This document shows positions 3,031 to 64,000 of a stretch of 64,000 bases of DNA, in pieces (position 1 is the stretch's first letter; each line of letters begins with the position of its first letter). The DNA is taken from sequence record OQ031072; one strand, written 5' to 3'. The position numbers and the translations under genes were made by a program. Under the pieces are notes generated by a model, which was given only the letters and a program-made list of their open reading frames with translations, was not told the DNA's origin and ran no database searches. The DNA is from Shigella phage SFPB.

Positions 3031-4382
3031 ATGTGGAATCCAATTGTTAATGTAGATATTACATTGAACACAGCAGGAACTACAAGAGAAGGTTTTGGTT
3101 TACCATTATTCCTTGCTTCAACAGATAACTTTGAAGAAAGAATCCGTGGTTATACTTCATTAACAGAAGTAGCTGAAGACTTTGATGAAAGTACTGCTGC
3201 GTATAAAGCTGCAAAACAGCTATGGAGCCAAACTCAAAAGTAACTCAACTGTATATTGGTAGAAGAACTATGCAATATACTGTTTCTATTCCTGACACAG
3301 TGGCTGAAGGAAGTGAATATTCATTGACAGTTGCTATTGGTGGTGGTGTTTCTCAGCCATTCCAGTACACTGCAAAAGAAAGCGACACAGCACTTATTGT
3401 CTTGAATGAGTTTAAATCACAGATTGAAGCAAGCCCAACAATTAAAGATGGTGTTAATGTTAGTGTAACAGGTACTGGTGCTTCTGCGACGATGATTATT
3501 ACTAAAGCTGGTGATAATGACTTCGTAAAAGTAACGTCTATTACACCTACAACATCTATTGCAGCAACAACTGCTGACACGGCTTCCGCTGCTCTGGCAT
3601 CCATTGAAGCATATTCAACAGATTGGTACTTCATCTCAGCAGAAGACAGAACTCAACAGTTTGTCTTGGCAATGGCTTCAGAGATTCAGGCTCGTAAGAA
3701 GATTTTCTTCACAGCTAATGCTGACGTTAAGGCTCTGCAAGGCACTGATTTGACCTCTGCAACAGATGTTCCGGCACAGTTAGCTAAGAGCAAGTACACT
3801 CGTACAGTTTGCTTGTGGCATCACACAGCCGAGTATGACTACCCAGAAATGGCTTACATCGCATATGGTGCTCCATATGATGCAGGTTCAATTGCTTGGG
3901 GTAACGCTCAATTAACTGGTGTTGCAGCATCTCTACAACCTGCTAACCAGAGACCACTGACAAGCATTCAGAAGTCAGCTTTAGATACCCGTAGCTGTAA
4001 CTTCATTGACCTCGATGGTGGGGTTCCTGTAGTGCGTAGAGGTATCACTTCTGGTGGTGAATGGATTGATATTGTACGTGGTGTTGATTGGCTTGAATCT
4101 GATTTGAAAACATCTCTGAGAGACTTGCTAATTAATCAGAAGGGTGGTAAGATTACTTATGATGATACTGGTATTACCCGTATTCGTCAGGTCATTGAAA
4201 CATCTCTTCAGCGAGCAGTTAACAGAAACTTTTTGTCAACTTACACCGTTACTGTTCCTAAAGCCTCACAAGTTGCATTGGCAGATAAGAAAGCACGTAT
4301 CCTGAAAGACGTTACCTTCCACGGTATTCTTGCAGGGGCTATCTTGGATGTTGACTTGAAAGGCACAGTGGCTTACGAATAA
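3031..4382 (+). CDS. putative tail sheath protein, reading frame changes (-1) between about 3207 and 3243 (70-aa ORF 3031..3243 plus 386-aa ORF 3222..4382)
   Basis: Combined size (~456 aa) and position immediately upstream of the tube gene; the 22-nt out-of-frame overlap is atypical for this genome, where neighbours are TAATG/ATGA-coupled. Adding one A at A-run 3213-3216 or 3236-3239 fuses the ORFs. Confidence 0.4.
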
Positions 4383-4854: not shown

Positions 4855-4894
4855 AAGGGGAGACTGTAAAAGGTCTTCCCCTTTTGTGTTTTTA
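4855..4894 (+). terminator. rho-independent terminator after tube gene
   Basis: AAGGGGAGAC-tgtaaaag-GTCTTCCCC hairpin followed by TTTTGTGTTTTT. Confidence 0.6.
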
Positions 4895-4918: not shown

Positions 4919-5320
4919 ATGAAAACTGAAACTAAAATGATTAATGGCAAGAAGGTAACTATTATTCTTCTTGGAGCTAGAGATGGTATCCGTATCTCTA
5001 TGAAGCTTGGTAAAGCAGTTGTACCAGCATTTGCACAGATGTTCTCTGGTTTAACCTCTAAAGATGGGGAAGCTAAAATCCCATTTAAAGAACTCGTTGA
5101 AGCTTGCTTTGAAAAGGTTGACGAACTAGATATTGATGCAATGGCAGAGACACTATTTCAGGGGGCAACAGTTAATGACTTCCCACTGAAAATTGATAGT
5201 TACTTCCAAGCGAACTACGGTGAATTTATTGACTTCTTAGCTTTTGCTTTGGAGGCAAACTTCGGAAGTTTTTTCGAGGCAAGCATTTTCAAAAGCCTAA
5301 CTTCTCAGCAGGAAGCTTAA
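4919..5320 (+). CDS. tail assembly chaperone (gpG-like)
   Basis: 133-aa acidic ORF immediately upstream of tape measure gene; conserved synteny. Confidence 0.55.
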   Translation: MKTETKMINGKKVTIILLGARDGIRISMKLGKAVVPAFAQMFSGLTSKDGEAKIPFKELVEACFEKVDELDIDAMAETLFQGATVNDFPLKIDSYFQANYGEFIDFLAFALEANFGSFFEASIFKSLTSQQEA

Positions 5321-5556
5321 GTTATTCTATGCAGACCCCGCTGACTGACGGGGCTGTAAAGGCAACTTATGATGAAGCAGATGAGATGAAATTTGTGCTT
5401 GCTATTTATGGTATGGATGGGTGTAAAGAAACACTCAACCAACTTTTTGATATGACCTTCGTTGATTTATTATCTCTACGTCAATATTTAGAAATCCAGA
5501 AGTCATATAAAGAAGAAATGGCTTACAACGAACTCAGAAAAGCAGGTAAAATTTAA
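5233..5556 (+). CDS. -1 frame extension of tail assembly chaperone (gpGT-like; predicted product 4919..5275 joined at -1 to 5275..5556)
   Basis: -1 frame is open from 5233; canonical slippery heptamer T_TTT_TTC at 5269-5275 in the zero frame; extension ends TAATG-coupled to the tape measure start. Confidence 0.5.
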   Translation, partial: LLSFCFGGKLRKFFRGKHFQKPNFSAGSLSYSMQTPLTDGAVKATYDEADEMKFVLAIYGMDGCKETLNQLFDMTFVDLLSLRQYLEIQKSYKEEMAYNELRKAGKI

Positions 5557-7768
5557 TGGCACAATATACAGTTGATAGTTTTATTGTTGAACTTGGATTC
5601 AGTGAAAAGGTTATTAAGGGTTTGCAAAGAGTTGAGAAAATGGCTATGCAGTCTGCTCAACGTATCGAACGCAATATCAATAAAGCCTTTGATGTGAAGC
5701 CTAATAGAAGTTCACAAGACGCTCTAAACAGACTTGTAAAAAACGCTCAGACTGCTTCAGGCAGAATCAATAAATCCCTAAACAATGCTATGAATTTAGA
5801 TTCACAAGGTGTAAAATCACTTCGTAGATTAGAAACACAGGGTAAGAAAACAGCCAAAGAAATTAATAAGGCTCTAAGACAAGCTATGAATGTTGAAGGT
5901 AAAGTCAATGTTCGTGGTGGAGTTGGTAGAGGCCGTGGTAATACTATCCCTCCGGTTGGAGGTGGTGGTTCACCTAGAGTTAGACCTGATATTGCTCAAA
6001 GACAAATGGAAAGAATGTTTAATAACAACTTCTATTCTGGTTTGACTCGTCGTCTTGAAACAATTGGTGGACAAGGTAACCAAATGGCTACTTCCTTCAG
6101 AGGAAGCTTACAAGGAATCTATAATAAGTACAAAGGTAGTGGTAAAGTTGGTGAGTATGAGATGGAAGTCAAGAAACTCATTGACACTACCAAACGTTGG
6201 GTTATTGCAGAAAATGCTAGACTTAAGGCAGTCAGAGAGTCAGCTTGGTTACAAGACAGAGCAAACTCTTCACTAAGACAGCTTGTAGGTGGTTTTGTTT
6301 CAGCGTATGCTATGCTGGAATTAGCTCAGAAGACTATTGATGCAGGTGTAAAGAGACAGTCTGCACAGTTAGCCTCAACAGCTATCTTTGGAGGGGATAC
6401 ACAGCAAGCTAGAATGTTCGCTGCTACGTTCTCTCACCAGATTGGTCAGAACTACACAGACACTATGAAGCAGTACTCAAACTTTGCTGCTGGTGCTCAG
6501 CCAGAGCTTGGTTTCCAAGGTACTCAGGAGTTCTATAAGAACGCTGCAATGTTCTCACGTATTCGTGGGGCTACTGATGAAGACTTGAAAGGTATCATGA
6601 TTGCTTTCCAGCAGATGGCATCTAAAGGTAAGATTCAGGCTGAAGAACTTCGTGGTCAGTTAGGTGACCGTTTAGCAGGTGCTGTTCAGCTATTTGCTGA
6701 TGCTATTGGGAAGACTCCACAAGAACTCGATAAGATGATGAAAGATGGTAAACTTCTTGCAAAAGATGTTCTACCAAAAGTCTCAGAAAGGATGAGAGAA
6801 CTTGTTGAAGCAGCAGGTGGTATGAATGCAGTTTCTAAGCAGACAGCTACCTCTATGGGTCAAGCCAAAGCTATGTGGGACAACACTCTTGTAGCACTCT
6901 TTAACAACTCTAGTGAAGGTATTTCACAACTTTCTAACTCTATTGCAATGTTCTTGCAAGGTTCACTTGGTACATCTCAGGCACTTGGTACAGGTATTGG
7001 TTACCTTTTGAAAGGTGCTAGTAACTTATTAGACTTCGTGACAGATATTATGTACCGCATTTCTTCATTGTACTACACAGCAATGGGTTATTACAAGGAA
7101 ATGGATGCTGGACAGCAGAAGTTAGTGAAAGAAGCTTCAGAGTTCCTTGCAACGGTTGTTGCTATTGGTGGTGCTGTAGCAACGGTTGCTAAAGTGGCGA
7201 AGCTTATCACTGGATTCTTTGATACAGCAATTGTACGAAAGATTCTTCAGAGATTTGGCATTGAGGTGGCTGAGAAAGTTGCACCAAGAGCAGCTCCATT
7301 TTTAATGCCACCTCAAGTAAAGGTAGCCTTGGCAACAATGGCACTATCTAGGTCTTCTGACCCAAATGCGGGGAAGAGATTTAATGAGGTTAATACACCT
7401 AACCCTTTCAATGAAGCTGTTTCAGGAATCACTAATCCAAAACGTCCTATGTTCTTTGACCAGAATGGACAACTCCAGTTTGCACAATACACTACAGATA
7501 CCTCTGGAAATATTCAGAGAGTTGATAACGGTTTGTCGAATTGGGATATTATCATGAACAACCTGTCTGAGTCTCTAAATAACTTTGCAAATAAGTTTAA
7601 TCAGACACCTATGATGATGACTCCTTCTGGACTCCCATTACAAACTAAGCAGACGCTTAACGTTTCCTTTAATCTGGATGGTAAGCAGATTGCTACTAAG
7701 ATGGTGGATATCACTGACAAGAATCAGGAAGATATTCTTTTAAACTCTAGCTACCCAGAGGATGAATA

Positions 7769-7769
<1 letters not shown>
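5556..7769 (+). CDS. tail tape measure protein
   Basis: 737 aa, Gly/Ala/Gln-rich with predicted helical N-terminus and hydrophobic segments; directly follows chaperone pair. Confidence 0.7.
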
Positions 7770-13276: not shown

Positions 13277-13590
13277 TGTCTCTTTCATGGTCTACAGACA
13301 CAGTTGATGCTGATGGTAACCAGCTTAAAGTTTTACCACCTCCAGAAATTCAAGCCACTGGCCTATTAAGAGGTGAACCTATGGGTCGTCAGTGGTTTAA
13401 CTATATTATCAACTATTTGCTTAACAAAGTAAATGGTACGGTTGGAGAGGTTCGTTCATTTGCTACGGAGCAACCTGATTTAGTTTCCAATGGTTGGGAA
13501 TTAATTGACACAGTAACAGGAACTGCACACACCAGCACGACTAACCTTTACACATATGAATATAAAGGAGCTAATAATGGCAGTCGGTGA
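13276..13590 (+). CDS. hypothetical structural protein
   Basis: 104-aa coupled ORF. Confidence 0.4.
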
Positions 13591-30167: not shown

Positions 30168-30359
30168 ATGAGAGAGAATAACTTTAAAGTAATTGACCAC
30201 CGTACAGTGGAACTCTCATCTCTTTCCAAAGAAGTTATGATGGAGCGACTTGAAAGGGTCGCTTCAAGAAGGAAAGAGATTGCAGAAGAAATCCATGAGC
30301 TTGATAAGATTGAAAACGGTCTTAAGGCAGAACTACAACGAAGAGGTGTGAATGGCTAA
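30168..30359 (+). CDS. hypothetical small protein; start trimmed
   Basis: ORF with SD AAGGTG. Confidence 0.4.
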   Translation: MRENNFKVIDHRTVELSSLSKEVMMERLERVASRRKEIAEEIHELDKIENGLKAELQRRGVNG

Positions 30360-32342
30360 ACAGAGAAAACTGAAAGATGCTGGAACATTTGTAGGTCACT
30401 GTGCATGTCCACGCCCTCAATGTTTATCTTCAGATGCAGGTTCTATATATCGTCATGATGACGGTTCATATTCAATGACATGTTTCAGTTGTGGAAAAGG
30501 TTTTCCAGAGTGGGATTTTGATAAAGGGCAGATTGTGAGTACTCATACTTCAGGTTCAGAGAATAAAAACCGTACATTTCGTGGTATGGATTTAGATGAT
30601 GTGAAAGAAAACCTAGAAGCAATGGATTTAAAAGACAGGAAGATTCCTGCAAAAGTCCTTGAGCGCCTTGGTATTAAAGTTGATATTGACGACAATGGTG
30701 ACATTGATGCGCACTTCTATCCAACATACAAAAAAGATGAAGATGGTAAGTTGCAACATGTAGGTTATCGTGTTCGTCACAAATATCCAGATGATTATCA
30801 CAAAGAGCACTTACGTGGGAAGTTGAAAGACTTTTCTGGTGGTGTCGGAGATATCAAAGGTGAACTGGCTATGTTCGGTTCATGGATTGCTCCAGAAGGT
30901 GGTAACCGTCTTTTCATCTGGGAAGGTGAGATGGAATGTGCTACAGCAATCTACATGACTTCTTTAGCAATTAAAGATAAGTCTAGACGTAAGAATTACT
31001 GCCACGTTTCTGTACCATCCGGTGCTAATGTTAAGTCTATCAAAGAGAACTATCAGTATATTACTTCCTTTGATGAGATTTACCTATGCTTTGATAATGA
31101 TGAAGCAGGGGCTAAAGCAACTAAGGAAGCTGCTGGTATCTTACCTATTGAAAAAGTAAGACTGTTCCAGTATCCTGAAGGTATTAAAGACCTTAGTGAG
31201 TGGTGGACTAAGTTCTTCAAAGACAAAGATACAGTCTTGGAAGGATTTAAACAACGAATCTACAATGCACCTCGTTACTGCCCTGCTGGTATCAAGAACT
31301 TTGCAGATGGTTTCGATGCTATGAAGAATCGTGGTCAGATTCCTTTAATTCCTTTCCCAGATTCTTTCGGGGATTTGAATAAGTTGACTTATGGCGGGTA
31401 TGGTTTAGGTGAGATTACAACCCTTGCTGCACCTTCATCTGTAGGTAAGTCTGCATATACTCGTGAAATGATTTACAAAGCATGGAAAGATACTGAGTAC
31501 AACATCGGTGTAATTCCTGTAGAAGACACTTACGAAGAACTTATGGAAATGCTCTGTGCAATCCATCTTAGTAAGCAGATTTCAGAGATTCCTTACGATG
31601 AGCGTAATTGGGATGAGATTAAGGTTGCACATGCTGAGTTGTCAAAAGGTCGTCGTATTCACATCGTAGACCACCAAGGGGCAATTGACCAAGATAACCT
31701 GCTGGAGTTTGTTGACTATCTGGTTAACAGCCTTGATTGTAAGATTATCATTCTTGACCCTATTACATTGGCGCTGTCACGCTCTGATACAGATGAAGAA
31801 GAAGTTCTGTCTGAGTTACTTCGTCGCTGTAAGCGTTATCAGTATGCTCAGGTAAACGTGTGTCACGTTCGTAAGAGTGCAGGTGGTCAAAAGGCCAACT
31901 CTGAAGGTGGTGATATTTCTGAAGAAGATATCAAGGGTTCTGGTGCATACTTCCAGATTTCCATGAACAACATTTTGCTTATGCGTAACAAGGTTGACCC
32001 AGACCCTGTTAAAAAGAACTTGACAAAATCAAGTTAACGAAATGTCGTCGTCATGGTAAATCAACTGGTATTGCTGGTCACACTTGGTACAATCCAGATA
32101 CAGGCCGTCTTGTAAAGGCTGCTGGATGTGGTGTTGATATTGATGGTGCAGCAGAGAATATTCGTCAGCAGTTTGGTATTGGTGAGGCTGAAGACCATTA
32201 TGATGACTCTATGCCACACTATGAAGATGTTGATTTTGACCGTGAATCTGGAGAGATTTACACACAAGAGCAACGTGAAAGCTCCACCATTCCACCTGTG
32301 ATTAACGAGGATAATGATGACTGTCCGTTCGAAACTGATTGA
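30352..32342 (+). CDS. T7 gp4-like primase-helicase; frame interrupted at A5 run 32011-32015 (frame A ends 32037, C-terminus continues in -1 frame to 32342)
   Basis: N-terminal Cys4 zinc finger; primase acidic motif FIWEGEMECATA; Walker A GLGEITTLAAPSSVGKSAYT; the -1 frame after the A-run encodes KLTKCRRHGKSTGIAGH..., matching the T7 gp4 C-terminus. Confidence 0.85.
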
Positions 32343-32814: not shown

Positions 32815-33222
32815 ATGTCTAAAGTTGTTAAAATGAAAGCTCCGGTAGAGAAGTACAATGGTCAAGAACGTGAGACTCTGCGTTACCTACTGAAAGATGT
32901 TTGGTTCTATTACCTGAACACTATTCCACGTCCTCAAAAGGGTAAATCTGTGGATAAGCATTTTCCGGGCAAAGATTGTAACTACAGCGTTTCAATTCTG
33001 GCAAAAGATGGTAACAAGCTCTTTAAAGAGTTCACCAAATCCAAGCGCAATGCTGAAGGTTGGGATAAAGTTACTACAGAGGCTGTTGATGCAGATGACT
33101 TCGAAGAGAAGTTTGGTTGTGAGCCTCCGTTTGAAGCTGACACCTATCACATCCTGAAGGTTAGCCGTTCAGCAGCATATAAAGACGGTGCTGTGTGGTC
33201 AGCAAAACAGAGTTTCCTGTAA
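32815..33222 (+). CDS. hypothetical protein
   Basis: 135-aa ORF with SD. Confidence 0.5.
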   Translation: MSKVVKMKAPVEKYNGQERETLRYLLKDVWFYYLNTIPRPQKGKSVDKHFPGKDCNYSVSILAKDGNKLFKEFTKSKRNAEGWDKVTTEAVDADDFEEKFGCEPPFEADTYHILKVSRSAAYKDGAVWSAKQSFL

Positions 33223-33674
33223 TGCTGGTTGAAGAAATCAACGGTAAGCGTGTTGCAGTTAAGCAGCCTATGAAGAAAATCAAGGCAGCAAAATCTGATA
33301 AGCACGATGATGATAAGACTTACGATGTAATTCATCCAGATATTGCAGTTGGTAACGGCTCATTTGGTAGTGTGATTCTGGCGACTCACTTCTACACATT
33401 TGAAGGTAACGTTCTGACCAAGCCAATTCAGGAACAATTTATCATTGATACTCTGGTTCCTTACACTGGTGGTACTGGTGGTGCTACTGAGACTGAACTG
33501 GATGAAGATGAACTGGCAATGCTTGGTCTTGCAGGTGTTGAAGACAACGGTGAAATCACTGAAGAAGATGCAAAAGATTCTGGTGATGAAGGTAAAGGTG
33601 GTGATGACGATGACGACGACCTACCAAACCCAGATGATGACGACGAAGATGATTTCGAAACTGACGACGAGTAA
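33222..33674 (+). CDS. protein with long acidic C-terminal tail (possible ssDNA-binding or replisome-interacting protein)
   Basis: C-terminus ...DDDDDDLPNPDDDDEDDFETDDE; TAATG-coupled; sits between helicase and flap endonuclease. Confidence 0.35.
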   Translation: MLVEEINGKRVAVKQPMKKIKAAKSDKHDDDKTYDVIHPDIAVGNGSFGSVILATHFYTFEGNVLTKPIQEQFIIDTLVPYTGGTGGATETELDEDELAMLGLAGVEDNGEITEEDAKDSGDEGKGGDDDDDDLPNPDDDDEDDFETDDE

Positions 33675-57751: not shown

Positions 57752-57799
57752 AGCCCTCCAAAGTTTGAGTTTAAAATCTCAGGTAAGGAGGGCTTTTTC
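57752..57799 (+). terminator. terminator-like hairpin (8-bp stem AGCCCTCC/GGAGGGCT, large loop) with U-tract
   Basis: stem arms 57752-57759 and 57787-57794, TTTTT 57795-57799. Confidence 0.45.
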
Positions 57800-57979
57800 A
57801 TTTCAAATTTGTGCAGGTGCAATTGCATAGAACTCTGGACAGATTTCTTTAGCTGAACTCCAAAGGGAAAATTCATTTTCAATTTGTGCAGGTCTAGACT
57901 CCAAAGAGCTTTTTCATTTTCAATCTGTGCAGATGCAGTTGGACTCCAAAGGGAAAATTCATTTTCAATTTGTGCAGGT
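57795..57979 (+). repeat. tandem direct repeats (iterons), 3 full copies plus 1 partial, unit ~40-45 bp, core TTCATTTTCAAT(T/C)TGTGCAG(G/A)T
   Basis: Copies at 57855-57893, 57896-57934, 57941-57979 (first and third near-identical), partial at 57795-57818. Confidence 0.8.
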
Positions 57980-58152: not shown

Positions 58153-58238
58153 TTGACTCTATGAATCCAGTTTTGTAGTATTTGCATCAACGGGGCAAGA
58201 TAAAGCCCCAACAATCCTAAACTGGAGAATCTAGAATG
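58153..58238 (+). promoter_or_regulatory. early-promoter cassette, variant B: TTGACT-17-TAGTAT, 5'UTR hairpin GGGGC-N8-GCCCC, CCTAAACTGGAGA RBS
   Basis: -35 58153-58158, -10 58176-58181, hairpin 58191-58208, ATG 58236. Confidence 0.6.
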
Positions 58239-58442
58239 TTATATCAACGGGAATTAATGATTGTAGACAATAACAAAACTAAAAAACGTCGCTTCTTTAT
58301 GTTAATCTGTGACGTGTGGCAAAGAATATCTGAAAAGGATTATGACAAGTATGTTGATACATCAATCAGGTCGGATTGTTATTTGACAAATCACACAAGA
58401 CAGTTTACAAGACATACAGCAGTTTACTACTATGACGTTTAA
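58236..58442 (+). CDS. hypothetical small protein
   Basis: 68 aa; canonical cassette spacing. Confidence 0.5.
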   Translation: MLYQRELMIVDNNKTKKRRFFMLICDVWQRISEKDYDKYVDTSIRSDCYLTNHTRQFTRHTAVYYYDV

Positions 58443-58453
58443 AGGGCTTGACA

Positions 58454-58615
58454 ATGATTAAAGAAGGCAATGTAATAAGCTACAAAGATTTAGACGGATA
58501 CCCAAAAATTGGGAAAGTTTTCTACCTTTACAAGTCAGTGATGGATAATGACTGCATAGCCCTAACAAATGGCGACAAGATAACCATGAAAGATTTTATA
58601 AAAATTATTTCATAA
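58454..58615 (+). CDS. hypothetical small protein (53 aa), not in ORF track
   Basis: SD AAAGGG 8 nt upstream; stop abuts next cassette. Confidence 0.35.
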   Translation: MIKEGNVISYKDLDGYPKIGKVFYLYKSVMDNDCIALTNGDKITMKDFIKIIS

Positions 58616-58707
58616 AGTGCTTTACATGGGGTTTAAAAAGGTAGTATCTTAAGCCCCAGATAAAGAGCTTTACCACTAAACAATCCTAAACTGGAGATTC
58701 TAAAATG
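58616..58707 (+). promoter_or_regulatory. early-promoter cassette, variant A: AAGTGCTTTACA(-35) ... TAGTAT, hairpin GGGGTTTAA-N12-TTAAGCCCC, CCTAAACTGGAGA RBS
   Basis: repeat family member; ATG 58705. Confidence 0.6.
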
Positions 58708-59088
58708 AAAAAATATTATATGCCAAAATTCATCAAGAAAGAAAACTTTCGTGATGCTCTGGAAAAATACATGAATGAGCAGTTCAAAGGTAAATTAATT
58801 GTTGTCCACGCATACAATTTTAAGTATGATGTAAATGGAAACAAGACAAATCACTATACCGCTACGATGCTGGATGGTACACTCTCAGGTGAAAAAGCCA
58901 TTATCAATGCACTGGCTGGACGTGGTAAAACGTTGATACGTTGTGATAAACGCCGATATCAGGGCAGTTCTTATGGTTATGAGGATGCAGTCTATCACCT
59001 TGATAACATGGGTTACAATGTCGAAAAAGCTGGCGTGTCTCAAATGATTGGTAGTGATGGATATGTGACAATTTTTAAAATTAACTAA
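58705..59088 (+). CDS. hypothetical protein
   Basis: 127 aa, cassette-driven. Confidence 0.5.
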   Translation: MKKYYMPKFIKKENFRDALEKYMNEQFKGKLIVVHAYNFKYDVNGNKTNHYTATMLDGTLSGEKAIINALAGRGKTLIRCDKRRYQGSSYGYEDAVYHLDNMGYNVEKAGVSQMIGSDGYVTIFKIN

Positions 59089-59090
59089 TA

Positions 59091-59178
59091 AAGTGCTTTA
59101 CATGGGGTTTATAGTTCAATAAGATAAGCCCCAGATAAAGAACTTTATTACTAACCTAAACTGGAGATTCAAAAAATG
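59091..59178 (+). promoter_or_regulatory. early-promoter cassette, variant A
   Basis: AAGTGCTTTACA-17-TAAGAT, hairpin, CCTAAACTGGAGA; ATG 59176. Confidence 0.6.
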
Positions 59179-59433
59179 GCTACCATTAAAAACATCGTAA
59201 TTACTGCAAAATCCCGTGATGATGCTCGTGCAACTGCTAAAAAATTAAATGGTAAAGTGGTTGACAACGGAAAAGATTCTACTGTAAGATGGGGCGTAAA
59301 GACAGACAAAAAATTAACTCTTAAACATAGCTCTTACAATATGTTTAAAGGTGTAAAAACTATCGGTAACACTAACGTGTTTACAAAACAGGGTTACAAA
59401 ATGCACTTAGCATTAATTGGCAATTTAATCTAA
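59176..59433 (+). CDS. hypothetical small basic protein
   Basis: 85 aa. Confidence 0.5.
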   Translation: MATIKNIVITAKSRDDARATAKKLNGKVVDNGKDSTVRWGVKTDKKLTLKHSSYNMFKGVKTIGNTNVFTKQGYKMHLALIGNLI

Positions 59434-59522
59434 AAGTACTTTACATGGGGTTTATAAGTCGATAGTATAAGCCCCAGATAAAGAGCTTTACCAACAATCC
59501 TAAACTGGAGATTCAAAAAATG
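59434..59522 (+). promoter_or_regulatory. early-promoter cassette, variant A
   Basis: AAGTACTTTACA-17-TAGTAT, hairpin GGGGTTTATA/TATAAGCCCC, RBS; ATG 59520. Confidence 0.6.
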
Positions 59523-60032
59523 AAATCAGTCGAAAGCACCTTTGAAGTTCAAAAAGAAAAATTTACTATCATCTTTGAAGCAATGAATGTTTATGAGCCT
59601 TCCCATTGTGTGGATAACTGGCAATTCACTGATGAGCATAAAGGAGGAGTTACAATCAAAGTTAAAAACTCAGAACGTAACGGCTACAAATATGCAATTC
59701 CTATGCACTATGCGCTTTCACAGCTTGCCAGTGATTACGCAAAACAGGGAAGGGATAACCCATCATTAGCCGCTTACAAGAGCTTACAAGATGAACTAGA
59801 AAGGGATTTAGGGGCTAATAGCTACATTCTATACGCCTCAGTAGTTGACGCTGAAGGCAACACGGTTTTAAATAGTTTTTCCCTTGCGTATGGTTTTGAT
59901 TGGTGCTATCTTGACGGGGAAGATTTAGATTCACGCTTAAAAGAGGAAGTAAGCAATTCAGGTGCTGAAGAGGAAGTTTTAGAGCGCTTGGAAGATTTAA
60001 AAGATAGTGTGATGAATATCTTTAATATCTAA
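59520..60032 (+). CDS. hypothetical protein
   Basis: 170 aa. Confidence 0.5.
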   Translation: MKSVESTFEVQKEKFTIIFEAMNVYEPSHCVDNWQFTDEHKGGVTIKVKNSERNGYKYAIPMHYALSQLASDYAKQGRDNPSLAAYKSLQDELERDLGANSYILYASVVDAEGNTVLNSFSLAYGFDWCYLDGEDLDSRLKEEVSNSGAEEEVLERLEDLKDSVMNIFNI

Positions 60033-60120
60033 AAGTACTTTACATGGGGGTTATCAAGTTGCTAAGATAGCCCCAGATAAAGAGCTTTACCAACAATCCT
60101 AAACTGGAGAATCTAAAATG
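60033..60120 (+). promoter_or_regulatory. early-promoter cassette, variant A
   Basis: AAGTACTTTACA-18-TAAGAT, hairpin, RBS; ATG 60118. Confidence 0.6.
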
Positions 60121-60408
60121 AAAATTCCTGCTAATGTACGCTCAAAGTTAAGCCAATTACTACAAAACATTTCTTTTGTAGAATCTCATAGACGTTCACA
60201 GGATGTTATAGAGTGGTATCATGGGAAGATTAACAAGAAAGAAGTTTTAATCTGTATTTGGAACTTTCAAAAAGAACATGGCAAGCCATTGCTTCAGGTT
60301 GACATTTATGATAATACTAGCAAATCAGCAGTAAAATCAAAAGCTGATATGATTGATTCATATGAAATTAGTCACACTGGTAGATTATCACACGTTGGGA
60401 AGGTTTAA
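60118..60408 (+). CDS. hypothetical protein
   Basis: 96 aa. Confidence 0.5.
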   Translation: MKIPANVRSKLSQLLQNISFVESHRRSQDVIEWYHGKINKKEVLICIWNFQKEHGKPLLQVDIYDNTSKSAVKSKADMIDSYEISHTGRLSHVGKV

Positions 60409-60409
60409 A

Positions 60410-60736
60410 ATGTTACTTTCTGGTATCGCAATTCTGATTTCAATTGTGGCGCTATGTAAAGCTTATCAAGCCTCAGCATATGCAGATAAGGCCATCACAA
60501 GGAAAGTTAAAATAAACCTTGTAAGTAGCTTCTTAGAGCGTTTAAGCGTGGAACAATTACAACGTTTAGAGATGGGCTTCAGGTTTAAGGCAGACACTTA
60601 TCAAATCAGTGATGTTTTATCCGGTAACTTTGAGCTTGTTAATGATTACAATACGTTACTAAATGCTATTCAAGCTACTGATTTAAAAGAATATTATCCG
60701 GCTATTGCACAAGAAATTAATAAACGCAAAAAATAG
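60410..60736 (+). CDS. small membrane protein; start trimmed
   Basis: N-terminal TM LLSGIAILISIVALC; in frame with track ORF 60353..60736. Confidence 0.45.
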   Translation: MLLSGIAILISIVALCKAYQASAYADKAITRKVKINLVSSFLERLSVEQLQRLEMGFRFKADTYQISDVLSGNFELVNDYNTLLNAIQATDLKEYYPAIAQEINKRKK

Positions 60737-60737
60737 C

Positions 60738-60822
60738 TTGCAAAGGCAAATCAAAACAAGTAAAGTACTCATCAACGGGGCAAGCAAGCCCCCAACAATC
60801 CTAAACTGGAGAATCTAAGATG
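60738..60822 (+). promoter_or_regulatory. early-promoter cassette, variant B (TTGCAA-17-TAAAGT, hairpin GGGGCAAGCAAGCCCCC, RBS)
   Basis: -35 60738-60743, -10 60761-60766; ATG 60820. Confidence 0.6.
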
Positions 60823-61092
60823 TATACAACTAATAATGGCAGAACTTTAAATGTAACTTTAAAGCACTATGTAGATGGTGTATTAAACTTTGAAGACTTG
60901 CAAGCAGAACAGCACTTGTTAGCTTGGCAAGTAGCAGGATTACAAAAAACCGCCACCGGATATGGGAAGAAAATCCCTACATCTTGGAAAGTTCGATACC
61001 TTGGAAAGTTACGCAGAATTTATCAAGATGTTTACAGTAATAGTGGTGTAAGTTACATTATTGTTAGTGGTAAAAAGTTACATCTTGCTTAA
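60820..61092 (+). CDS. hypothetical protein
   Basis: 90 aa. Confidence 0.5.
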   Translation: MYTTNNGRTLNVTLKHYVDGVLNFEDLQAEQHLLAWQVAGLQKTATGYGKKIPTSWKVRYLGKLRRIYQDVYSNSGVSYIIVSGKKLHLA

Positions 61093-61094
61093 TA

Positions 61095-61182
61095 AAGTGC
61101 TTTACATGGGGTTTATAAGTCGATAGTATAAGCCCCAGATAAAGAACTTTATCACTAACCTAAACTGGAGATTCAAAAAATG
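61095..61182 (+). promoter_or_regulatory. early-promoter cassette, variant A (near-identical to copy at 59434)
   Basis: AAGTGCTTTACATGGGGTTTATAAGTCGATAGTATAAGCCCCAGATAAAGAAC...; ATG 61180. Confidence 0.6.
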
Positions 61183-61581
61183 GCTACGAACAAAGATATA
61201 GCAGTACTGAAAGCACGTTTGACCGTTAACCGTATTAATGCTATCACATCAACCGCACCAGATGAGGTTTTACATAACATTATCGGTAAAATTCAGGGTG
61301 TAATTTTAGACGTTGAAAACATCAGAAATTCACTTGCAAATGTTGCACAGGGTGTTACACTTGACGGCGCACAATATGAAATGGCTGATATGCTTTCAAA
61401 GTCAAAAGTTCTTAATAAAGAATTAGACTTGAAAATGTTTCGATTTGCTGTTAAAGTGTGGTTATCTGTTGAGTTTGATGCTAACTTTGCAATTGCTGAT
61501 TTCTTTGCAACGTGGTTACAACGTAATTTAGAAAAGCAAGATTTTCAAGATATCTGCGATACAATTTACGCAGAACTTTAA
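61180..61581 (+). CDS. hypothetical protein
   Basis: 133 aa. Confidence 0.5.
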   Translation: MATNKDIAVLKARLTVNRINAITSTAPDEVLHNIIGKIQGVILDVENIRNSLANVAQGVTLDGAQYEMADMLSKSKVLNKELDLKMFRFAVKVWLSVEFDANFAIADFFATWLQRNLEKQDFQDICDTIYAEL

Positions 61582-61588
61582 AAAACGT

Positions 61589-61675
61589 TTGACACTAATT
61601 TTTAGATAGATTAAAGTACTCATCAACGGGGCAAGACAGAAGCCCCAACAATCCTAAACTGGAGATTCAAAAATG
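61589..61675 (+). promoter_or_regulatory. early-promoter cassette, variant B (TTGACA-17-TAAAGT, hairpin, RBS)
   Basis: -35 61589-61594, -10 61612-61617; canonical ATG 61673. Confidence 0.6.
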
Positions 61676-61677
61676 AA

Positions 61678-62229
61678 ATGCTTTCACGGAACTACTCAAG
61701 AAAATTTTGTAAACCTGCTGAGTGGTGGAGAAAACCTTCAGGGGCTTGGAATTGCTCAGACAGTGACGGGTGTTTTTATGTTTACCCTGTTAGTAAGTTC
61801 TATGATGTAGAGGATATGGACGCAGAACAAATCACTGAAGAGGGTATTAGAAACGCTCTGGATAGCGCAAGTATCACAGCGGCTTTCCAGATGAAATCAC
61901 AAAAAATCGTTATCTTGGAACTTGATATTCCAGAAGATGAATTACAAGATGACTGGAGCTGTGAGAACATGAGCGATGTTGCAAGCTTTACAGAATACTT
62001 TGATAGGGCTTGGATTAAAAAGATTTACACAACTGAATTTAATGCTATGTATGCACCGTTTTTTGTACCTAACTTGAACAATAGAAATCTGGGCTATGTA
62101 CCTGATGAATTACATAACATTGCTGTAATGATTCAACGTAGCGATGAGATGAATAACGTGTTTTGTGATTTGTGCGACAACTTGCAATCTAACATAACAG
62201 AAAGCACTGTAAGCGACGTTTTAGCGTAA
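61678..62229 (+). CDS. hypothetical protein; start ambiguous (61678 in-frame ATG, or cassette-canonical ATG 61673 in the +1-offset frame joined at T5 run 61774-61778)
   Basis: 183-aa ORF from 61678; alternative 45-codon ORF from 61673 ends at 61810. Confidence 0.45.
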   Translation: MLSRNYSRKFCKPAEWWRKPSGAWNCSDSDGCFYVYPVSKFYDVEDMDAEQITEEGIRNALDSASITAAFQMKSQKIVILELDIPEDELQDDWSCENMSDVASFTEYFDRAWIKKIYTTEFNAMYAPFFVPNLNNRNLGYVPDELHNIAVMIQRSDEMNNVFCDLCDNLQSNITESTVSDVLA

Positions 62230-62292
62230 ACCATACAATCACACTAACAACATTCAAAAGCCCTGTATAGGGGCTTACAAGGGGTTTAAATC

Positions 62293-62529
62293 ATGTTAAC
62301 GACTATCTATCTCATGCTTGCCGTTTGCTCTGGTGCAAATAATTGTCATTATGGCATTATGGAATCTTTCGAAGGCACTAAACAAAATGCAGTAGAGGCT
62401 TGCAATATTGCTAGACAGGACTACCCGAAATCGTCTATAATGGGCTGTTATGTCTTACAAGGTGAAGACGAAAGCACAGAATACTACGAAAACGTTAATG
62501 AAGATGAGTTTTTAGAGATTTACAAATAA
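62293..62529 (+). CDS. small secreted/lipoprotein-like Cys-containing protein
   Basis: Hydrophobic N-terminus MLTTIYLMLAVCSG; 78 aa. Confidence 0.45.
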   Translation: MLTTIYLMLAVCSGANNCHYGIMESFEGTKQNAVEACNIARQDYPKSSIMGCYVLQGEDESTEYYENVNEDEFLEIYK

Positions 62530-62606
62530 AGTACTTTACATGGGGCTTTAAACCTTGCTACTATAAGCCCCAGATAAAGAGCTTTCCTAAACTGGAGATT
62601 CAAATG
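62529..62606 (+). promoter_or_regulatory. early-promoter cassette, variant A (shortened 3' part)
   Basis: AAGTACTTTACA-18-TACTAT, hairpin, CCTAAACTGGAGA; ATG 62604. Confidence 0.55.
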
Positions 62607-62753
62607 ATGACGCATACTATTGAGACAGTTTTTAACAACCCTGTATTCTCAGAGATGATTTTCTCATTTATCATGATGTTACTAGTAAAAATCATGAAAA
62701 AAGCAGAAAAACTACATTTAAAGAAAAAATCTATTGTAAACCGTATTAAGTAA
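62604..62753 (+). CDS. small membrane protein (49 aa), not in ORF track
   Basis: cassette-driven; hydrophobic core FSFIMMLLV then basic tail. Confidence 0.4.
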   Translation: MMTHTIETVFNNPVFSEMIFSFIMMLLVKIMKKAEKLHLKKKSIVNRIK

Positions 62754-62800
62754 AGTTACAGTATCTATCAAGCCCACTTCCTAAACTGGAGAATCTGAAA

Positions 62801-63142
62801 ATGGCACATGTAACCATAATTACTGATAAAGAAAATTCATCTTGGTCTACAAAAGTAAGTGATAAAGTGTCGCCTTTACAGTGCCTAAAATACTTTGAGC
62901 AATGGAATCGCGGCGAGGATGTTAGCCCGTTTCATGTGATGCGTATAGTTCACACTGACAAAGAAGGGAATAAAACAACCTTAAACAGTGAATACTATGC
63001 AACACGATTTGAAACAAAAGTTAACACAATGAAAATATTACGTGAATCCGGCTATGGTCACATTGCCGCTTTAATCTGGAGTGATTTACTCAAAGACCAA
63101 AAAATGACCTATGTCAAGACAGAAAAAATCTTTATAAGCTAA
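62801..63142 (+). CDS. hypothetical protein
   Basis: 113 aa; preceded by CTTCCTAAACTGGAGAATC RBS module. Confidence 0.5.
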   Translation: MAHVTIITDKENSSWSTKVSDKVSPLQCLKYFEQWNRGEDVSPFHVMRIVHTDKEGNKTTLNSEYYATRFETKVNTMKILRESGYGHIAALIWSDLLKDQKMTYVKTEKIFIS

Positions 63143-63269
63143 TCAATGACTTACAAAATTCTTTGAAAAAACTGTTGACAATACCCCTTGACATTGATAG
63201 ATTTGTTCGAGGGGTTTATCTAAAAGGGATTCACTTAAAAGATTCTTTATAGATAAGCGTAAAAAGTAC

Positions 63270-63340
63270 TTGCAAAGGTCTAATCATATCTATATAGTAT
63301 CTTCAAAAGGCAACTTCCTAAACTGGAGAATCACTAAATG
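63270..63340 (+). promoter_or_regulatory. early promoter TTGCAA-17-TATAGT plus CCTAAACTGGAGA RBS module (no hairpin)
   Basis: -35 63270-63275, -10 63293-63298; ATG 63338. Confidence 0.5.
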
Positions 63341-63478
63341 TTAGATATCATTAAAAACCCTATCCTTTGCGGTATGATTGTCTCTGTTGTGTTGCCATTA
63401 GCAATACTCATCATTGGTGAAATCTCAGATAAACTTTTTGATAAAAAACTACTTGCAATACAGAATCAAAACAAGTAA
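63338..63478 (+). CDS. small membrane protein (46 aa), not in ORF track
   Basis: Hydrophobic segment ILCGMIVSVVLPLAILIIG; 3' end overlaps next cassette promoter. Confidence 0.4.
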   Translation: MLDIIKNPILCGMIVSVVLPLAILIIGEISDKLFDKKLLAIQNQNK

Positions 63479-63545
63479 AGTATTTATCAACGGGGAGGAG
63501 ACTTCCCCACTAAAACAAAATTCCTAAACTGGAGAATCTAGAATG
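63453..63545 (+). promoter_or_regulatory. early-promoter cassette, variant B (TTGCAA-17-TAAAGT, hairpin GGGGAGGAGACTTCCCC, RBS)
   Basis: -35 63453-63458; ATG 63543. Confidence 0.6.
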
Positions 63546-64000
63546 AATAAGTTCCAAGCAATTAATCATATCCGTTCCAATGCAGTAATGAGCAAGCCAG
63601 TAAAAGACACCTTCGAATTTCGCTGTAATGACAAGTTGTTTGCAGTCATTACGAAAGGGGAAGATAAAAAGTATTATGTACATCGCCAAAACGTTAAGGC
63701 GGTAACAGCAGATAACTTTATGCAAGCTGTTGCAAAAATTCTACCGGATTTTATGGAACTGGTAGCAGAACTTTGTGAACACTGCATCAAGTCATCAAAG
63801 GCAGAATTAAACCGCTTTAAAATGGCTTATGAGCGTTCTATCAAGTCTCATAACATGTATATCATGCCATTGGCTTTTGGTACTCAGGCAATGGGAACAG
63901 GTTGTCATCCTTGCCACCTTTACGATGTAGAAAGCATTTACCTTAGTGAGACAAAAGATATTGATTTTAGTTTACAGTTAGGACAAGCATTAAACGATAT
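63543..64000 (+). CDS. hypothetical protein, 3' end beyond window
   Basis: ORF open from cassette-positioned ATG to window end. Confidence 0.5.
   Translation, partial: MNKFQAINHIRSNAVMSKPVKDTFEFRCNDKLFAVITKGEDKKYYVHRQNVKAVTADNFMQAVAKILPDFMELVAELCEHCIKSSKAELNRFKMAYERSIKSHNMYIMPLAFGTQAMGTGCHPCHLYDVESIYLSETKDIDFSLQLGQALND

Follow-up and report, generated by a model that had tools for sequence, protein, structure and literature searches.

It was found that the primase-helicase gene of Shigella phage SFPB (sequence record OQ031072) is divided between two reading frames by the lack of a single A at positions 32025-28 of the 64,000-nucleotide stretch analyzed here, which is called the window below. 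With high confidence, the apparent split is ascribed to a one-base homopolymer under-call in the assembly and not to a recoding signal. Most likely, the phage has a run of five A residues (A5) at this site, and its primase-helicase is a normal protein of 663 aa. The loss of one A, leaving A4, would make the ORF seem to end at 32037 and would place the last 104 codons in the -1 frame. Such a loss would have arisen in sequencing, assembly, or polishing, that is, from a technical rather than a biological cause, and it would be one of a set of one-base deletions along the assembly. This reading is preferred because the missing base was located against three intact 1992-nt genes and the repaired junction matches the relatives exactly. 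It is also preferred because the A4 allele is private, the deletions in the window are one-directional, conserved genes are broken by them, and a control pair of genomes is clean.

The primase-helicase gene and the site of its break

By its product, a bifunctional primase-helicase like T7 gp4, the gene is an ordinary Mooglevirus gene of a known type. The window contains a Mooglevirus genome (Ounavirinae, FelixO1-like) with ~97% identity to the Shigella/Escherichia phages Sf15, KPS64, and 3HA14. The best records are ~97% identical to it when compared over 25 kb, and, judged from its sequence, it is a distinct Mooglevirus genome. For the segment 30352-32342 (1,991 nt), 275 phage records gave a match, and in 270 the match covers 80% or more of the segment. 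All of these records belong to Ounavirinae, the FelixO1-like subfamily, and the top match is Shigella phage KPS64 (Mooglevirus) with 99.1% identity.

When the frame is repaired, the protein has a Toprim primase domain (Pfam Toprim_2, PF13155; E=7e-8, 33.2 bits with a cut-off of 22.1; residues 224-283) and a DnaB/RecA-like helicase domain (Pfam DnaB_C, PF03796; E=1.4e-7, 31.6 bits with a cut-off of 27). Both domains are shared with T7 gp4 (PDB 6n7i, 1q57, 1e0j), as is the KCR arginine-finger motif, in which R566 equals R522 of gp4. Residues 151-594 align with residues 120-549 of T7 gp4 (E=4.5e-38), the gp4 primase fragment 1nui can be aligned as well, and the gp4 helicase domain structures 1e0j and 1cr0 match with E~1e-24. 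The Walker A sequence SSVGKS pairs with the gp4 P-loop GSGMGKS, and the two proteins also have in common an acidic C-terminal tail with an aromatic residue in it. In contrast to T7 gp4, the repaired protein is ~100 residues longer, mostly due to a C-terminal extension ahead of the acidic tail, and its N-terminal zinc-binding region is divergent and lies outside the alignment. Thus, the earlier note on this DNA, which took the gene for a gp4-like primase-helicase of ~663 aa after repair, was right about its identity. The features around the break are as follows.

30352..32037, + strand: truncated primase-helicase ORF, 561 aa (ORF list; TAA at 32035-37)
32028..32342, + strand: rest of the gene in the -1 frame, I560-D663 and a TGA stop (translation, tblastn)
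32025..32028, + strand: A4 run with one A missing (A5 in relatives), the actual frame break (alignments, indel census)
32011..32015, + strand: A5 run of T_AAA_AAG, in the wild-type state (the same in relatives with an intact gene)
32017..32035, + strand: 7-bp inverted repeat AACTTGA / TCAAGTT with the affected A run in its loop (MFE structure)

The truncated ORF consists of 559 authentic residues, two out-of-frame codons (Ser-Ser), and the TAA codon, and thus ends at 32037 as had been noticed before. No match to the exact 561-aa product is on record. It had also been claimed that the -1 frame from 32013 encodes the conserved helicase C-terminus. This frame is indeed open to 32342 (110 codons, KELDKIKLTKCRRHGKSTGIAGH...), and its translation aligns up to residue 549 of T7 gp4. 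By tblastn, residues 1-559 of the 3HA14 primase/helicase correspond to 30352-32028 of the window in frame 1 with 100% identity, and residues 550-663 match frame 3 with 95.6% identity.

The missing base had previously been placed in the A5 run at 32011-15. Inserting one base does restore 663 aa, as was then proposed, but the site was wrong. I used as alignment references KPS64, KMM2, and Henu11, each of which has one intact primase/helicase CDS of 1992 nt (663 aa). The sequence GTTAAAAAGAAC (A5, 32011-15) is unchanged between the window and these three intact relatives, while the window has GACAAAATC (A4, 32025-28) in place of their GACAAAAATC. The missing base therefore lies in the A run 10 nt downstream of the run first suspected. 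An A inserted in 32011-15 yields ...VKKELDKIKL..., which was found in no relative, whereas an A inserted in 32025-28 yields ...VKKNLTKIKL... (...VKKNLTKIKLTKCRRHG...), which is identical to the relatives. A lesson drawn from this gene is that the broken run need not be the run nearest the stop codon.

The repaired junction is common among relatives. A 100-aa peptide over it is 100% identical to the sequences of Maleficent, HP1, and 3HA14, each matched as one tblastn piece in a single frame, and 257 records are at least 95% identical. The junction is read as a single piece in one frame by all 60 records sampled across the ranking. In the Mooglevirus relatives KPS64, Sf13-Sf19, 3HA14, and KMM2, the primase/helicase gene is 98-99% identical in nucleotide sequence to that of the window across its whole length, and the first 559 residues of the 3HA14 protein are the same as those of the window. 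The Mooglevirus neighbourhood is also as in the window, with a dNMP kinase gene upstream and small hypothetical genes downstream. These relatives have A5 in the second run and one annotated 663-aa CDS, whereas the window has A4.

Is the A4 allele found elsewhere? A 201-nt query (31925-32125) matched 302 records, and each of 60 sampled records, which span Mooglevirus, Felixounavirus, and Kolesnikvirus, is one base longer than the window. The sole exception by length is GE_vB_BS (MG969407), an unannotated record marked 'UNVERIFIED' in GenBank. It has a 2-nt deletion and a 1-nt insertion of its own nearby, yet has A5 at the position equivalent to 32025-28. Exact-pattern scans for the A4 allele gave no match in the metagenome and genome collections and five in IMG/VR. 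These five matches are all 20-24 nt in length, lie on unrelated contigs with no wider homology, and are probably due to chance. The A5 pattern scan retrieved three Mooglevirus genomes whose genes are intact. In the records searched, the A4 allele is private to the window. Three unrelated IMG/VR viral contigs match AAAAGAACTTGACAAAATCAAGTT exactly over 23-24 nt without further homology to the helicase gene; these matches are probably due to chance or to a promoter-like (TTGACA) sequence.

One-base deletions along the window

The window was aligned to the annotated genome of vB_EcoM_3HA14 over the well-aligned first 52 kb, with a few divergent blocks left out. Ten isolated one-base deletions and no isolated one-base insertion were found in the window (sign test, p=0.002). 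They are listed by position, with the change relative to 3HA14.

3236: C2 to C1, tail sheath
4861: G5 to G4, intergenic
13569: G3 to G2, last codons of a 99-aa gene
14759: T4 to T3, intergenic
18521: CTCT context, thymidylate synthase
18827: A2 to A1, DHFR
27888: C3 to C2, just upstream of the DNA polymerase start
32025: A5 to A4, primase/helicase
33216: C3 to C2, 287-aa gene
45581: C3 to C2, intergenic

Nine of the ten deletions lie in runs of at least 2 (46.5% of bases expected, p=0.006) and seven in runs of at least 3 (17% expected, p=0.0003). When the 3HA14 proteins were searched against the window by tblastn, five genes were found to be split across two frames, namely those of the tail sheath, thymidylate synthase, DHFR, primase-helicase, and the 287-aa protein. 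The tail sheath gene (phrog_205, E=4e-118) is divided into ORFs at about 3031-3240 and 3237-4379 by the CC to C change at 3236, and this deletion is absent in all 60 sampled relatives, which are one base longer. The conserved gene for the 287-aa protein (phrog_3877, 'rv5 Orf52-like') lies 1.2 kb downstream of the helicase lesion and is divided into ORFs 32815..33222 and 33195..33674; its C3 to C2 deletion at 33216 is not present in 3HA14, Sf15, or KMM4. As a control, Sf15 was compared with 3HA14 over the same ~50 kb. In this independently sequenced pair of similar divergence, no isolated indel of a length not divisible by 3 was found. The marks of a homopolymer artefact are thus found at 32025-28, where a mononucleotide run is affected and the indel is private, and directional indels of the same type break other conserved genes. 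The earlier note had considered a homopolymer error likelier than ribosomal slippage, and the single frame of the relatives and the private one-base losses favour the same order.

Some of the ten deletions may be genuine differences, because half of them (five of ten) are intergenic or at a gene end, which is above the expectation for random errors in a ~90% coding genome. Most of the deletions are in short runs (2-5 nt), several of them of C or G, and 132 runs of at least 5 are otherwise intact. The deletions at 4861, 14759, 27888, and 45581 are in G, C, or T runs within intergenic sequences resembling ribosome-binding sites, such as AAGGGG[G]AG and the GAGGGAG before the DNA polymerase start, and may be errors or genuine variation. 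The deletion in the thymidylate synthase gene (TTCTC[T]CCCC, 18521) and that at 13569 are shared with Citrobacter phage BSwM KMM4 (OP902293), to which the window is only 96-99% identical around these two sites. They may be real shared variants or context-specific or recurrent systematic errors. These caveats leave the reading of 32025 unchanged, because this deletion is private and interrupts an essential gene ahead of the codon for a catalytic residue, and because the private tail-sheath deletion accompanies it.

KMM4 itself resembles the window in that its primase/helicase gene is split by a 1-nt deletion in an A run and many of its other genes are split. Its break is in the first run (A5 to A4), 14 nt upstream of the lesion in the window, whereas the break in the window is in the second run. 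Relative to Sf15, 46 kb of KMM4 contain 27 isolated one-base homopolymer deletions, the majority of them in A/T runs of at least 5. Its annotation gives the DNA polymerase as three pieces and shows nrdD, exonuclease, thymidylate synthase, and primase/helicase as split. Compared with KMM4, the window has fewer deletions in shorter runs, which is not the classic long-homopolymer profile. The idea that the window is merely a close kin of the error-rich KMM4 was rejected, since local identity is 96-99% and the indel sets differ except at two sites. The window, KMM4, and GE_vB_BS have three different indels within ~20 nt, as expected of error-prone homopolymers rather than of a selected signal.

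Possible alternatives: genuine deletion, recoding, or slippage

Alternatively, this genome could truly have lost the base through a recent loss-of-function mutation, as a defective or minority variant or a mutant from laboratory passage, so that the 561-aa protein is the only one made or a trace of the full-length protein arises via unprogrammed slippage. I consider this unlikely. The given sequence does carry A4, the two deletions shared with KMM4 indicate that not every indel need be an error, and thymidylate synthase and DHFR are plausibly dispensable. Against it stands what the truncated product would lack. The gp4 sequence ILKCRFTG pairs with LTKCRRHG of the repaired protein, the KCR being K520-C521-R522 of T7 gp4, and the codon of R566 (32046-32048) corresponds to R522 by alignment. 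R522 is the arginine finger of T7 gp4, and its critical role was confirmed by site-directed mutagenesis (PMC1616965, PMC9371691). Contacts of T7 gp4 with other replication proteins are presumed to be mediated by its acidic C-terminal tail. In the sequence as given, R566 is in the -1 frame beyond the stop codon and hence outside the polypeptide; it joins the same polypeptide only once an A is restored at 32025-28. The break after K559 leaves a 561-aa product without the arginine finger, the remaining domain, and the acidic C-terminal tail. Because the arginine finger and the tail are missing, this product is predicted by analogy with T7 gp4 to be inactive and should not work as a helicase. A genuine deletion is further disfavoured by the privacy of the allele to the window sequence and by the state of the downstream 104 codons, which are intact at the above identity of 95.6% to 3HA14 and show no sign of decay. 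In addition, the tail sheath gene is split in the same genome, and a phage with a broken tail sheath as well could hardly be propagated.

Programmed recoding is far less probable. It would consist of a -1 shift at T_AAA_AAG (32010-16) or of a slip of the P-site tRNA-Lys on the A4 run (ACA_AAA_U to A_AAA), in analogy to dnaX. A_AAG-type motifs are shift-prone in E. coli, and a slip of tRNA-Lys from AAA at 32026-28 to AAA at 32025-27 would re-pair perfectly and reproduce the exact ancestral protein. The likeness of T_AAA_AAG to the A_AAA_AAG site of E. coli dnaX, on which the earlier note had based the conceivable slippage, turned out to be weak, and the slippage idea has no support: the relatives use a single frame, the run is not conserved, and no extra RNA structure was seen. 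The two genes have in common a Lys-Lys AAA_AAG pair in a replication gene, in this case just upstream of the break. Unlike that of dnaX, the heptamer of the window starts with T, has neither a detected Shine-Dalgarno (SD)-like stimulator nor a downstream hairpin, and is not conserved in relatives; it is not a canonical conserved X_XXY_YYZ heptamer. At its position, Felixounavirus has GTT AAG AAA AAC and Kolesnikvirus has GTT CGT AAG AAC, and the second run reads ACN AAG ATT in Kolesnikvirus. Neither A run is conserved at synonymous positions (AAA/AAG swaps, CGT), and both disappear in Kolesnikvirus, while in the protein V[KR]KN[LI]TKIKLTKCRRHGKS is maintained in all of them.

The products of slippage at the heptamer also argue against it. 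In the window, a slip at T_AAA_AAG would give VKKELDK, not the conserved VKKNLTK. In the intact relatives, it would lead only to a short dead-end product (KELDKNQVNEMSSSW and a stop), and a conserved dnaX-like truncating frameshift at this site in those relatives was rejected, since the synonymous positions are not conserved. No split-ORF arrangement was found among the relatives examined: all 60 sampled records have a single piece and all 60 are one base longer, and KPS64, KMM2, and Henu11 have a single CDS. In the upstream stretch 31990-32009, no strong SD-like element can be seen, and no stimulatory structure was found downstream in 32017-32116, where the MFE of -17.9 kcal/mol is close to the mean of dinucleotide shuffles (-17.65; z = -0.09). 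The inverted repeat at 32017..32035 is the only local element; it is present in close relatives and is not significant as a frameshift stimulator. Slippage on the A4 run offers no explanation for the other four broken genes. Efficient transcriptional slippage needs a run longer than A4, and the two forms of T7 gp4 arise by internal initiation, not by frameshifting. Literature relevant to a Mooglevirus primase frameshift was not found.

It is equally hard to credit that A4 is real and that the phage survives by a low-level, unprogrammed -1 slip of tRNA-Lys on A_AAA, regenerating the wild-type 663-aa helicase. The slip site ACA_AAA_UCA lies two codons before the 0-frame stop. tRNA-Lys slippage without stimulators is expected to be inefficient. 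Such a phage, if it exists, would carry a spontaneous frameshift mutation in an essential replication gene and owe its rescue to unprogrammed P-site slippage.

Annotation and other elements of the window

In curation of this assembly, the genes for primase-helicase, tail sheath, thymidylate synthase, DHFR, and the 287-aa protein are best treated as intact genes with consensus errors, and labelling any of the five as a pseudogene or a recoding site should be avoided. Likewise, the split genes of KMM4 (OP902293) and GE_vB_BS (MG969407) should not be read as biology, as both records contain many frame-breaking indels. Comparison with close relatives separates such homopolymer artefacts from programmed frameshifts.

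The tape-measure gene (5556..7769) is preceded by two small ORFs (4919..5320 and 5329..5556), which the 3HA14 annotation calls tape-measure chaperones. The two ORFs are neighbours without overlap, so that the usual arrangement for a G/GT -1 frameshift cannot readily be recognized.

At 57776-57979, a 43-nt unit (...TTCATTTTCAATTTGTGCAGGT) occurs in four tandem-like copies with spacings of 41-75 nt. At 58209-63568, there is a conserved cassette of ~90-110 nt in at least 6-8 copies, each ahead of a small ORF. The elements of the cassette are a TTTACA...TAAGAT resembling a promoter, a hairpin of GGGG...CCCC, and CCTAAACTGGAGATTCAAAAAATG (SD sequence and start codon); it also matches several places in the 3HA14 genome. 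These cassettes look like repeated units of an early-gene promoter and a 5′UTR.
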